Notes under the pieces: model-generated
Told to the model about the DNA's origin: nothing
The model's database searches: none
The model's input: the letters and a program-made list of their open reading frames with translations, nothing else
Made by a program: the position numbers and the translations under genes
Shown here: one piece after another, positions 28,759-31,700 of the stretch
Layout of the letters: every line of letters starts with the position of its first letter
Numbering within the stretch: the first letter of the stretch is position 1
Source of the DNA: Intrasporangium sp.
Lineage (GTDB): Bacteria > Actinomycetota > Actinomycetes > Actinomycetales > Dermatophilaceae
DNA length: 64,000 nucleotides
Assembly: GCF_036566125.1 (NCBI RefSeq)
Contig: NZ_DATCWX010000255.1
Location: 2,402 to 66,401, forward strand
Reading direction: 5' to 3'

Positions 28759-31700
28759 GTGACCGAGATGGCATCGGCGCAGGACAAGGACAAAGCCCTC
28801 TCCACCGTGATGGGGCAGATCGAGAAGAACTTCGGCAAGGGCGCCGTCATGCGCCTGGGCGACGACATCCGCCCGCCCATCGAGGTCATCCCGACGGGGT
28901 CGATCGCCCTCGACGTCGCCCTCGGGATCGGCGGTCTGCCGCGCGGGCGGATCGTGGAGATCTACGGACCTGAGAGCAGTGGAAAGTGCCTCACGGCCGA
29001 CACTTATGTGTGGTCCGACCAGGGCCTCGAGACCATCGCAGAGCTCTTCGAGCGCACCGGCCAGCCCGCCTCATGCACGTCTCGGGTTACCGACGTGTCC
29101 CACTTGGGACTTCGCGTCGTCAATGAACGCGGAGAGCTCGAGGCCGTCGCTGCGACAACGCACAACAACCGCAAGCCGGTCCTGCGCATCCATCTCAGCT
29201 CTGGACGCACAGTGAGTGCTACGCACAACCACCCGTTGCGCGTCATGAACGAGCGCGGCAACATCGTCTGGCGCACGGCAGGACGGCTGGCGGTTGGCGA
29301 CACCGTTGTGTCGGCCCTGTTTGGGGCTGAGGAGGCCGCTCACGGTGATGGCCTCAGCGAGGACGAGGCTGTTCTGCTGGGCTATCTCGTGGCCGAGGGA
29401 ACGCTGGGTGAACAGAACCGCCACGCAGTCCGCTTCACCAATTGGGATCCGGAGGTGGCTGGCGAGTTCTCCTCACTCATGGAGTCCGTATTCGGCAGCA
29501 CCGTCAAGCATTACGCTGACCGAGAGCATGTCGTACACGACACGGCACTACGCAAGCGTCTCGCCGACGACTACGGCTTGGCGTTCGTCAACGCTCCCGA
29601 GAAGTCCGTTCCCCACCGAGTTCGGACTGCTGGGGCGAAGGCACAACGTGCATTCCTCTCCGCGCTGTTCGAGGGCGACGGGTGGATCGACCCGTCGTCA
29701 ACTGTCGGGCTCGGTTCGGCGTCAAGACAATTGGCCGAGCAGGTCCAGCTGATGCTCTATGGCCTCGGCGTCCCGGTCACGCTGCATACGACCTTCAACA
29801 CCACCTACGAGCGCGACTACTACAGCGTCATCGTGAACCCCAGCGCCGTGCATCGCTTCCTCGAGGTGGTCGGCTTCCGCTCCGCGCGGCGCGCAGCTCA
29901 GGTCGAGGCCAACTACCGACCGTCGTCGCGTGACCCGCAGCGGGAGAACGTGCCGCATCAAGCCACCCGGATTGCCGACCTGCGTGACTCCATCGGCGGC
30001 GATCGGGGGTTTGACCGGGTCGCCGGCGATCTTTTCCGCAAGGACATGGATTTGCGCTGTTCACAGACTCGGCTGCTGAGAATCGTCGCCTGGGCCGAGG
30101 CGCGCCCTGAGCGGATCACGGATGGGGCTCGGGCGCTCATCGAGCACCTGAGGTCGCTGGCGTTGCAGCGCTACTCCTATGAGGAGGTCGTTTCAGTCGA
30201 GGACGGGGGAATGCAGCCCACGTTCGACATCATGGTGCCCGGGTCACACAGCTTCCTTGCCAACGGCATGCTGTCCCACAACACGACTGTGGCGCTGCAC
30301 GCGGTCGCCAGCGCGCAGAAGGGCGGAGGAATCGCCGCCTTCATCGATGCTGAGCACGCGCTCGATCCGGAGTACGCGAAGAAGCTCGGCGTCGACACCG
30401 ATGCCCTGCTCGTGTCGCAGCCGGACACGGGGGAGCAGGCGCTCGAGATCGCCGACATGCTGATCCGCTCCGGTGCGCTCGACATCATCGTCATCGACTC
30501 CGTCGCCGCGCTCGTGCCCCGCGCCGAGATCGAGGGTGAGATGGGTGACAGCCACGTCGGCCTCCAGGCCCGCCTCATGAGCCAGGCATTGCGGAAACTG
30601 ACCGGTGCGTTGAATACGACTGGTACGACAGCGATCTTCATCAACCAGCTCCGCGAGAAGATCGGCGTCATGTTTGGCTGCATGAGCTACAGCACCCGGG
30701 TCACGCTCGCTGATGGCTCCACTGAGAAGATCGGCAAGATCGTCAACCAGAAGCTGCCGGTCGAGGTTCGCACGTACGACGCGAAGACCAACGAGATCGT
30801 GAACCGTCCGGTGACCGGATGGTTCGACAACGGCGTCACGGAGAAGTTCCTCCAGTTCACCGTCGCGAAGTCCGGCGGTAACGGCAAGTCGAAGTTCGCC
30901 GCGACCGAGAACCATCTCGTCCGTACGCCAAGTGGCTGGCGCGAGGCCGGCGAGATCATTGCCGGCGATCGGGTCATGGTCAACGAGACGGCTCGGCTGA
31001 GCGAGCAGCAGTGGCAGGTCGTGCTCGGTGGTCTCATGGGCGACGGCCACCTCGCGCCGAACACCCACGGGCGCAGCGGGGTTCGTTACCGAATGGGTCA
31101 CGGGGAGAAGCAGGTGGCCTATCTCGACTGGAAGGCGGCCCTCCTCGGCAACATCGGACAGACCCGATCGGTACGACCCAACGGGGCGGTGCATATCGAC
31201 CTGACACCCCTGCCCGAGCTCGGTGAGCTGCGCGAGGTCATGTACTGGGGTGACGGCAAGAAACACCTGACCGACGATGTGATCAAGCAGCTGACGCCCC
31301 TCGCGCTCGCGATCTGGTACATGGACGACGGGGCCTTCGCACTGCGGTCAAAGGGGCTGCAGGCACGGACCGCTGGTGGCAGCGGCCGCATCGACATCTG
31401 TGTCGAGGCAATGAGTGAGCGCAGTCGTGAGCGACTGGTCGAATTCTTGAGGGACACGCACGGCGTGGAGTGCCAGGTGTCGCTGCGCGGCGCCCGCCAG
31501 AAGGCCGTGCTACAGATGACGACGGCGGGGACGGCTCGCTTCCAGGAGATCGTCGCGCCCTACATCCACCCCTCGATGGACTACAAGCTCCTGCCGCGCT
31601 TCGGGGGACAGTTCGCGGTCGAGCCGGAGTTCGTCGAGCCGACCCAGGTACTCGTCCCGGCGCGGGTCCTCGACGTCCACGTCAAGCCCAAGACGCGTTC

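Follow-up and report, generated by a model that had tools for sequence, protein, structure and literature searches.

A recA gene with two inteins in an Intrasporangium-like actinobacterium and the relatives of its P-loop intein

The recA gene described here raises the question of what kind of element splits its Walker A motif, and whether this element is tied to the inteins found at the equivalent point of archaeal RadA. The gene lies in a stretch of 64,000 nucleotides, the whole of which is called the window below. Its reading frame is interrupted between the Lys and the Thr of the P-loop (GPESSGK|T, the vertical bar marking the insertion point) by a sequence that the first-pass annotation described as a 432-aa class 1 intein with LAGLIDADG motifs. 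Junctions, motifs, Pfam profiles and fold all agree with that description. The rarity that was implied for the insertion is not borne out, and neither is its novelty. The RecA P-loop intein site was named c2 and placed at the same point as the archaeal RadA site c1 by Topilina et al. (2015, PMC4513877, Table 1), a catalogue that includes the combined c2 and b inteins of Thermobifida fusca, and the 'classic' P-loop insertion K|T is described in the literature. A bacterial RecA host, insertion between the Lys and the Thr of GPESSGK|T and homology to a listed c2 intein were all found here. Intein 1 is thus an ordinary new example of an insertion type catalogued in 2015, in other words a known RecA allele without a specific tie to RadA inteins.

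With high confidence, the gene itself is a housekeeping recA located on the chromosome of an actinobacterium of Dermatophilaceae/Intrasporangium type. It is interrupted by two inteins, that of the P-loop carrying a putative LAGLIDADG mobility module, and encodes a precursor that is expected to splice to a 350-aa RecA. Pfam recognizes RecA in the precursor (E = 2.5e-129), with the match split in three pieces, as well as RecA_C, and the NCBIfam model TIGR02012 (recombinase RecA) reaches 526.6 bits against a cut-off of 325.3. When both inteins are removed in silico, a 350-aa RecA remains that is collinear with solved RecA structures. Residues 6-350 of this sequence align with residues 4-349 of Mycobacterium smegmatis RecA at 645 bits with the P-loop ungapped, and the RecA proteins of Mycobacterium tuberculosis and Escherichia coli also align end to end, with no gap at GPESSGKTT. 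The gene order is macro-domain gene, SOS-like box, recA, recX, yceI, miaB, def and miaA, and the Macro domain of the ORF upstream of recA was recognized by Pfam. The SOS-like palindrome TCGAACACGTGTTCGG has one mismatch to TCGAAC-N4-GTTCGA, which we take to be the actinobacterial LexA consensus, and is a putative LexA site judged by this sequence match. An exact match to the precursor, read from either of two alternative start codons, was looked for and none is on record. Of the best 80 loci of a genome scan, the nearest (L001, from an uncultured Actinomycetota MAG) has 94.5% nucleotide identity over 9.3 kb and keeps a recA ORF of identical length, and a locus of Intrasporangium sp. is 83% identical to that of the window. 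The coordinates of all features are listed in Table 1.

Table 1. Features of the recA locus (positions in the window; residue numbers of intein parts count from Cys1).
Feature	Position	Strand	Basis or remark
SOS-box-like palindrome TCGAACACGTGTTCGG	28579..28594	+	about 165 bp upstream of the recA start
recA precursor ORF with two inteins inside	28759..32199	+	1146 aa + stop; Pfam, NCBIfam
N-extein, 76 aa, last residues the Walker A fragment GPESSGK	28759..28986	+	aligns with solved RecA structures once the inteins are removed in silico
Intein 1, 432 aa, RecA c2 P-loop allele	28987..30282	+	precursor residues 77-508; Pfam, model, family junctions
Intein 1 N-terminal splicing (HINT) region, residues 1-115, Cys1 and block B T79-x-x-H82	28987..29331	+	beta-strand-rich in model
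Block B SATHNHP, T79-x-x-H82	29215-29235	+	motif
LAGLIDADG homing endonuclease core, residues 116-297	29332..29877	+	Pfam LAGLIDADG_3
LAGLIDADG motif 1 LLGYLVAEG, acidic E137	29374-29400	+	motif
LAGLIDADG motif 2 FLSALFEGDG, acidic D231	29653-29682	+	motif
Helical extra domain, residues 298-393	29878..30165	+	helices at residues 300-393 in model; missing from shortened relatives
Intein 1 C-terminal splicing region, residues 394-432, block F D414 and H421, block G H431-N432	30166..30282	+	
Blocks F/G, PTFDIMV... onward	30217-30282	+	motif
Middle extein, 132 aa, first residue Thr (+1 nucleophile, Walker A Thr), last residues GVMFG	30283..30678	+	ORF reading
Intein 2, 364 aa, M. leprae-type b site, GVMFG|C...VHN|SPETT	30679..31770	+	Pfam LAGLIDADG_2, E = 1.7e-37
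C-extein, SPETT... to stop, including the RecA C-terminal domain	31771..32199	+	ORF reading, Pfam, alignment
recX, directly 3' of recA	32212..32841	+	Pfam RecX_HTH1, HTH2, HTH3

Intein 1 opens with Cys1 directly after GPESSGK and closes with ...NGMLSHN, followed by TTVALHAVA. Cys1, TxxH, D414 and H421 of block F, the terminal His-Asn and the Thr at +1 are all present, together with the HINT profile and fold, which makes it a class 1 intein. Its endonuclease is of the double-motif LAGLIDADG kind, both motifs having their acidic residue and the profile and fold agreeing. Pfam scores are 56.4 bits for Intein_splicing (cut-off 35.8) and 74.5 bits for LAGLIDADG_3 (cut-off 22.5), and the NCBIfam models intein_Nterm and intein_Cterm both exceed their cut-offs. 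The AlphaFold2 model (pLDDT 84.7, pTM 0.87) is matched by Foldseek to TliVMA (7qss, TM 0.71), then to PI-PfuI (TM 0.67), PI-PkoII and PI-SceI, and I-DmoI resembles the endonuclease core. A 303-aa relative (P0104) has a deletion of approximately residues 302-390, which is most of the helical extra domain.

It had also been claimed that intein 1 is less G+C-rich than its exteins. This is correct at third codon positions, where the G+C content (GC3) is 0.785 in the intein versus 0.86-0.94 in the exteins and 0.871 +/- 0.039 across the 41 ORFs of the window; a GC3 this low occurs in 1.5% of 432-codon stretches of other genes. It is not correct for total G+C, where the gap is trivial (0.641 versus 0.654-0.667).

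The second intein of the gene is absent from the first-pass annotation, which placed the M. leprae-type site 'elsewhere'. The M. tuberculosis (KNK|C) and M. leprae (GVMFG|S) RecA sites are indeed other positions than the P-loop, as was stated there. Intein 2 scores 10 bits against the family profile of intein 1 and is practically unrelated to it.

Splicing would begin from the translated 1146-aa precursor. In intein 1, Cys1 would start an N-S acyl shift, the thioester would be attacked by Thr+1, which is the Walker A Thr, and cyclisation of Asn432, with His431 assisting, would release the intein and rejoin GPESSGK-T. Intein 2 is expected to splice independently at GVMFG|SPETT. The Lys|Thr split in the ORF confirms that the Walker A motif stays in two pieces until splicing, and the ATPase is probably blocked up to that point. 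The P-loop and the monomer interface would be intact only in the doubly spliced 350-aa protein. Since only this form would be complete, splicing should be a prerequisite for RecA activity. Mobility would come from the double-motif endonuclease, which is predicted to cleave an intein-less recA at the P-loop codons (predicted target ...GGCCCGGAGTCCTCCGGCAAG|ACCACCGTCGCG...), after which the intein would be copied in by homing. Such homing would explain why the allele is found sporadically yet widely in Actinomycetota. Anatomy, homology, insertion site, purifying selection and genomic context are shown by the data; the ability of intein 1 to splice, its cleavage of DNA and a regulatory role, if it has one, are inferred.

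The spread of the allele was followed in a genome scan, in which 144 species genomes encode a relative of intein 1. Locus-level counts refer to the best 80 of these 144 loci, a set that does not include T. fusca. A full-length intein of 427-438 aa with the identical junction GK|C...HN|T is present at 79 of these 80 loci, and a b-site intein accompanies it at 39 of the 79. The 2015 catalogue has T. fusca as its single entry, but the c2 allele is far more widespread in Actinomycetota: a relative is encoded in at least 144 genomes at species level, and c2 and b doubles make up about half of the best loci. Homologs at 42-73% identity number more than 100 and nearly all are in RecA. In an exhaustive profile search, 742 cluster representatives were matched at E <= 1e-30 and 6923 at E <= 1e-10. 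Insertion after GK was found in 98 of the 106 top cluster representatives with a complete N-junction, 77 of them in RecA-like proteins and 21 in other proteins with an N-junction ending in GK. The closest relatives outside RecA sit at the GK|T of phage helicases and of other GK-junction proteins, a picture of one intein clade hopping between P-loop ATPases.

Among the 80 family sequences, Cys1 is invariant (80/80). C1, T79, N81, H82 and P83, the residues D414, H421, H431-N432 and Thr+1, and the acidic E137 and D231 are all at least 97% conserved. Two non-catalytic cysteines are also retained, Cys30 in 79 and Cys358 in 76 of the 80 sequences. Ka/Ks is 0.06-0.20 for the whole of intein 1 and 0.04-0.19 for its endonuclease core, showing that the intein is under purifying selection. 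Database searches also turned up numerous relatives cut down to 297-390 aa, their endonuclease regions degraded; members of the family thus often lose the endonuclease, and an active one cannot be taken for granted in intein 1. The divergence of intein 1 correlates with that of the middle extein (r = 0.54) and of intein 2 (r = 0.75), with RecA exteins being too conserved to resolve a tree. Against the locus L002, Ks is 1.23 for the intein and 0.56 for the exteins, and against L001 the order is reversed; extein Ks is depressed because of strong codon bias (GC3 about 0.9). For these reasons neither the correlations nor the Ks differences are read as a sign for or against horizontal transfer.

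The shortened or frameshifted state of many database relatives (e.g. P0063, P0090 and the 297-390 aa versions) could suggest that intein 1 is a non-splicing remnant as well, and recA a pseudogene or non-functional copy. This is extremely improbable for the gene of the window: its 1146-codon ORF is unbroken and retained in L001, the splicing residues are all intact, Ka/Ks is far under 1 in every sub-region, and the gene is followed by recX, as is canonical for recA, and preceded by an SOS-like box. A single lineage shared with the archaeal RadA c1 inteins, which would have moved between domains by recognizing conserved P-loop DNA, would be in line with the insertion point. RadA loci from metagenomes read FGEFG(S/T)GK|C...HN|(T/S)Q, as in FGEFGSGK|C...HN|TQ, so that, as had been proposed, RadA inteins use the equivalent Walker A point and its GK|T junction. 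Class 1 chemistry and Thr+1 are common to all of these inteins, and the full-length RadA P-loop inteins match the family profile significantly though modestly, at 45-90 bits (best 90.6). Against this, specific kinship was not found when RadA inteins were compared with inteins of unrelated hosts: the best RadA match, 90.6 bits, faces 244-292 bits, made up of 292 bits for the enterobacterial c2 intein and 244-246 bits for phage helicase inteins. In the library of the exhaustive profile search, a score of 90 bits corresponds to an estimated E of about 1e-18, so that the RadA inteins fall far from the group of nearest relatives. They also do no better than unrelated archaeal inteins (PI-PkoII, 68 bits), and among PDB matches the Pyrococcus horikoshii (Pho) RadA intein ranks 13th, behind PI-PkoII, Ssp DnaB, Mxe GyrA, PI-PfuI and VMA inteins. 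A shared lineage is thus very unlikely. Convergent and shared targeting had both been offered in the first-pass annotation; the scores go against shared origin and favour independent targeting. The sequence comparisons point to independent invasion of RecA c2 and RadA P-loops, which was also the conclusion of PMC4513877.

Purifying selection on the endonuclease core and the sporadic distribution suit an ordinary homing cycle no less than they would a domesticated switch, in which intein 1 would be more than a selfish element and would have been kept since it gates the RecA ATPase post-translationally under stress such as redox change or temperature. The high conservation of Cys30 and Cys358 speaks for such a role, although these cysteines may be merely structural, as do the Cys in matching ...ATCTT... 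context in the enterobacterial c2 intein, which the phage helicase inteins do not have, and the persistence of the intein over deep actinobacterial lineages. Precedents for conditional splicing are the RadA P-loop intein (PMC4513877), the DnaB inteins of M. smegmatis (PMC6195587) and the RecA intein of M. tuberculosis (PMC11377839). On balance, domestication is unlikely. A more specific version is somewhat more doubtful still: actinobacterial and enterobacterial c2 inteins might be kept as a redox- or stress-sensitive gate on the RecA ATP site, with Cys30 (perhaps Cys358) trapping Cys1, and in genes with both c2 and b inteins, about half, two inteins might integrate two signals before RecA becomes active. 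If the Cys30 redox trap were real, conditional splicing could conveniently be studied in these RecAs as natural systems with two inteins. Under the preferred reading, an ordinary c2 intein in a housekeeping recA, the locus has little significance beyond annotation, where it should be entered as a recA carrying one intein at c2 and one at b, with a mature RecA of 350 aa.

Comparison with known systems places intein 1 at different distances from its relatives. The inteins of P. horikoshii RadA and other RadA c1 inteins share with it the GSGK|T point, Thr+1 and a split ATP site in a RecA-superfamily recombinase. The Pho RadA mini-intein scores 30 bits, a generic similarity, and its conditional splicing has been shown experimentally. 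The RecA inteins of M. tuberculosis (site a) and M. leprae (site b) also interrupt actinobacterial RecA, and site b is filled here too. Their insertion points, KNK|C and GVMFG|S, are unlike that of intein 1, and PI-MtuI matches the family profile weakly (23.6 bits).

Closer relatives are found in phages. DNA helicase inteins of Herelleviridae (Enterococcus phage Riverwalk, Bacillus phage Goe25 and others) are homologous to intein 1 from end to end, with 29-31% identity (E about 1e-39 to 1e-41; profile 244-246 bits), and also follow the GK of G-x-G-K-T (TGGGK|C...NHN|TE), but their host is a helicase (uvsW in one record) and not RecA, and an equivalent of Cys30 is absent. In PMC4513877, the c2 intein of 'E. 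coli RecA' is given as residues 65-486. Exactly these coordinates are occupied by the intein of an enterobacterial phage-plasmid RecA, recorded on plasmids of approximately 106-115 kb from Escherichia, Klebsiella and Enterobacter and in phages of approximately 108-111 kb, such as Escherichia phage Cyrano. This intein is 35% identical to intein 1 over 100% of the query (E about 1e-62; 217 bits with phmmer, 292 bits with the profile) and shares with it the junction GK|C...SHN|T, the HINT, LAGLIDADG and helical domains and the Cys in ...ATCTT... context. It differs in its length (422 versus 432 aa), its low-GC genome and its host, a divergent phage/plasmid RecA-like recombinase (FGPPSAGK|...TFLATAAM) rather than a cellular RecA.

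A parallel in gene architecture is the RecA of T. fusca YX (Q47RS6), compared here by its published coordinates: according to PMC4513877, c2 and b inteins occupy residues 96-517 and 650-1006. The inteins measure 422 and 357 aa in T. fusca and 432 and 364 aa here, and the host families are Nocardiopsidaceae-type and Dermatophilaceae-like, respectively. In both, the host protein is an actinobacterial chromosomal RecA, both sites are occupied, and the end of the c2 intein is separated from the start of the b intein by the same 132 residues.

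The recA precursor ORF is interrupted twice, and the first insertion had been described in the first-pass annotation as a class 1 intein in the Walker A P-loop with a block B and two LAGLIDADG motifs. This feature is real and was rightly described. All of the named motifs are found, with block B as SATHNHP (T79-x-x-H82), the LAGLIDADG motifs at residues 130-138 (LLGYLVAEG) and 223-232, and blocks F/G beginning with PTFDIMV. Pfam assigns Intein_splicing (56.4 bits, cut-off 35.8) and LAGLIDADG_3 (74.5 bits, cut-off 22.5) to intein 1 and RecA and RecA_C to the flanks of the inserts, and the gene passes the NCBIfam recombinase RecA equivalog (526.6 vs. 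325.3 bits). In agreement with this, an AlphaFold2 model of intein 1 (pLDDT 84.7, pTM 0.87, from an alignment of 7 sequences) retrieved endonuclease-bearing inteins in Foldseek: TliVMA (7qss, TM 0.71), PI-PfuI, PI-PkoII and PI-SceI.

Coordinates of recA, its inteins and neighboring features in the window
Feature	Position	Strand	Remarks
Macro-domain ORF (ADP-ribose-binding or -hydrolyzing)	27529-28530	+	Upstream of recA, E = 3e-46
SOS-box-like palindrome TCGAACACGTGTTCGG	28579-28594	+	~165 bp before the recA GTG start
recA precursor ORF	28759-32199	+	1146 codons, GTG start
Intein 1	28987 (Cys) to 30282	+	432 residues, RecA sequence on both sides in translation
Cys30 codon of intein 1	29074-29076	+	Non-catalytic
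Cys358 codon of intein 1	30058-30060	+	Non-catalytic
Intein 2	30679-31770	+	364 aa, GVMFG|C...VHN|SPETT, M. leprae-type 'b' site, LAGLIDADG_2 endonuclease
recX	32212-32841		Downstream of recA
YceI gene		-	Downstream of recX

Intein 2 was not mentioned in the first-pass annotation, although the same ORF carries it, and with 10 bits it shows essentially no relationship to intein 1. In-silico removal of both inteins results in a 350-aa protein that matches Mycobacterium smegmatis RecA with 645 bits (residues 6-350 against 4-349) and also aligns end to end with the RecAs of M. tuberculosis and Escherichia coli. The alignment with known RecAs is free of gaps across the P-loop junction.

The surrounding genes, with a MiaB-like radical SAM gene, def and miaA following the YceI gene, identify this as an ordinary chromosomal recA neighborhood and not a phage or plasmid copy. 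The palindrome TCGAACACGTGTTCGG differs by one mismatch from TCGAAC-N4-GTTCGA, the actinobacterial LexA consensus, which suggests putative LexA control of the intein-containing recA. The N-terminal ~180 residues of the Macro-domain ORF are rich in Arg and Pro, and the mechanical ORF call may over-extend them. The nearest public locus, from an uncultured Actinomycetota MAG, is collinear over 9.3 kb at 94.5% nucleotide identity and has the same two-intein recA ORF of 1146 aa; the second nearest, from an Intrasporangium sp. MAG, reaches 83%.

Intein 1 most likely follows standard class 1 splicing, in which an acyl shift at Cys1 and trans-esterification by Thr+1 would be followed by cyclization of Asn432 and release of the intein. 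Intein 2 would splice independently, and the LAGLIDADG enzyme would mediate homing into empty recA alleles. Since the Walker A Lys and Thr lie 432 residues apart in the precursor, ATP binding by RecA should depend on splicing. Two cysteines outside the catalytic set, Cys30 and Cys358, are conserved in 79 and 76 of 80 actinobacterial inteins of the RecA P-loop type (c2), respectively. A Cys also occurs in the enterobacterial c2 intein, within a matching ...ATCTT... stretch; the phage helicase inteins have none there. Because conditional splicing is reported for inteins of RadA (PMC4513877), DnaB (PMC6195587) and M. tuberculosis RecA (PMC11377839), a redox trap formed by these cysteines is conceivable by analogy, but improbable.

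Relatives of intein 1 are widespread in Actinomycetota. With intein 1 alone as the query, 108 proteins were found at E <= 1e-5, nearly all of them RecA from this phylum (42-73% identity), with hosts in Dermatophilaceae, Jiangellaceae, Plantactinospora, Streptomonospora, Egicoccus and Nitriliruptor. Homologs with both junctions always show (Y/F)GPE(S/G/A)SGK|C...SHN|T. With one genome scanned per species, a relative was detected in 144 genomes; among the best 80 of these 144 loci, 79 have an intein of 427-438 aa at the same junction, and 39 of the 79 additionally carry a b-site intein. The hosts of these 80 loci include Intrasporangium, Ornithinibacter, Fodinibacter, Nostocoides, Ornithinimicrobium, Micromonospora, Nocardiopsis, Streptomonospora, Allonocardiopsis, Pseudonocardia, Acidimicrobiia and Egibacteraceae. 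Across the 80 sequences, conservation is at least 97% for the residues of splicing and for the acidic residue of each LAGLIDADG motif. Comparison of intein 1 with seven relatives gave Ka/Ks values of 0.06-0.20 over its entire length and 0.04-0.19 within the endonuclease core, the latter indicating purifying selection on the endonuclease, now or until recently. Databases also contain shortened versions (297-390 aa) whose endonuclease regions are eroded, as expected in a homing cycle.

Several NCBI records of c2-intein recA genes are systematically misannotated at the start codon: P0001, P0003, P0008, P0014, P0016 and P0038 begin at an internal Met inside the intein (MTADTY..., MVAGTR...) and lack the whole N-extein and Cys1. 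Two proteins from Logan assemblies (P0064 and P0065) contain c2-family inteins (42% identity, ending SHN|TTV) with a Ser/Lys-rich, non-RecA-like stretch before Cys1 and a stop a few residues past the C-junction; such proteins might represent a host other than RecA, a free-standing copy or an error of assembly.

The intein had also been considered less G+C-rich than its exteins, as expected after horizontal acquisition. This is barely visible in total G+C (0.641 vs. 0.654-0.667 in the exteins, with the whole of recA below the window mean of 0.694) but is clear at third codon positions. GC3 is 0.785 in intein 1, decreasing to 0.71-0.76 in the endonuclease core, against 0.86-0.94 in the exteins, 0.863 in intein 2 and 0.871 +/- 0.039 across 41 window ORFs; among windows of 432 codons taken from other genes, just 1.5% have a GC3 this low. 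The lower GC3 would fit an origin that is foreign or less ameliorated, without being proof of it. Against the Intrasporangium sp. locus, Ks of intein 1 is about twice that of the exteins (1.23 vs. 0.56), whereas against the closest relative, the Actinomycetota MAG, the order is reversed (0.18 vs. 0.32). These opposite orders could be due to codon-bias saturation effects or to separate histories of the intein.

The P-loop position had further been linked to archaeal RadA inteins through convergent or shared targeting. The position is indeed the same, but a shared origin is not supported. From 72 metagenomic loci matching FGEFG(S/T)GK-C, 52 RadA P-loop inteins were extracted (minis of 167-195 aa and full-length forms of 425-511 aa), and these score at most 90.6 bits against the family profile, compared with 292 bits for the enterobacterial c2 intein and 244-246 bits for phage helicase inteins. 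Among PDB entries, the intein of Pho RadA comes 13th with 30 bits, after PI-PkoII, Ssp DnaB, Mxe GyrA, PI-PfuI and VMA inteins. These scores point to a likeness between RecA c2 and RadA c1 (the P-loop allele of RadA) no greater than among inteins in general. The common position is best read as a conserved motif targeted independently, with the similarity to RadA being positional only.

The closer relatives lie elsewhere. When plasmids and phages were searched by tblastn, intein 1 matched along its full length (35% identity, E about 1e-62) inside RecA genes carried by Escherichia, Klebsiella and Enterobacter plasmids of ~106-115 kb and by related phages. Residues 65-486 of RecA in Escherichia phage Cyrano are the intein (FGPPSAGK|C...SHN|TF), in exact agreement with the coordinates published for E. 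coli c2. This agreement and the full-length match place intein 1 in the c2 allele by site and by homology. Helicase inteins of Herelleviridae come next, with 29-31% identity along their whole length, in Enterococcus phage Riverwalk (L082), Bacillus phage Goe25 (L083) and 100+ other phage records; they are inserted as TGGGK|C...NHN|TE, directly behind the GK of G-x-G-K-T. This indicates one intein clade at the K|T position of unrelated ATPase families. When 1.84 billion cluster representatives were searched exhaustively with the profile, 742 matched at E <= 1e-30; in 98 of the 106 top representatives with a complete N-junction, the insertion follows GK, and these 98 comprise 77 RecA-like and 21 other proteins. 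Judged from their junction strings, the 21 others resemble P-loops of helicases ('ATNGGK'), of terminase-like proteins ('RGxGK') and of DnaB-like proteins ('GKPGVGK').

The first-pass annotation had set this site apart from the classical mycobacterial RecA inteins. The P-loop site, the RadA parallel and the double-intein arrangement are all already in print. Five RadA/RecA intein sites, a to e, have been catalogued, with the P-loop as site c (Topilina et al. 2015, NAR 43:6631, PMC4513877); Kelley et al. is a further cited source on this site. Table 1 of PMC4513877 lists c2 (65-486) in RecA of E. coli, Enterobacter and Salmonella, and both c2 (96-517) and b (650-1006) in RecA of Thermobifida fusca YX. 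Intein 1 is therefore a fresh example of the catalogued RecA-c2 allele in a catalogued two-intein arrangement, and the gap of 132 residues between c2 and b in T. fusca RecA equals the length of the middle extein in the window recA.
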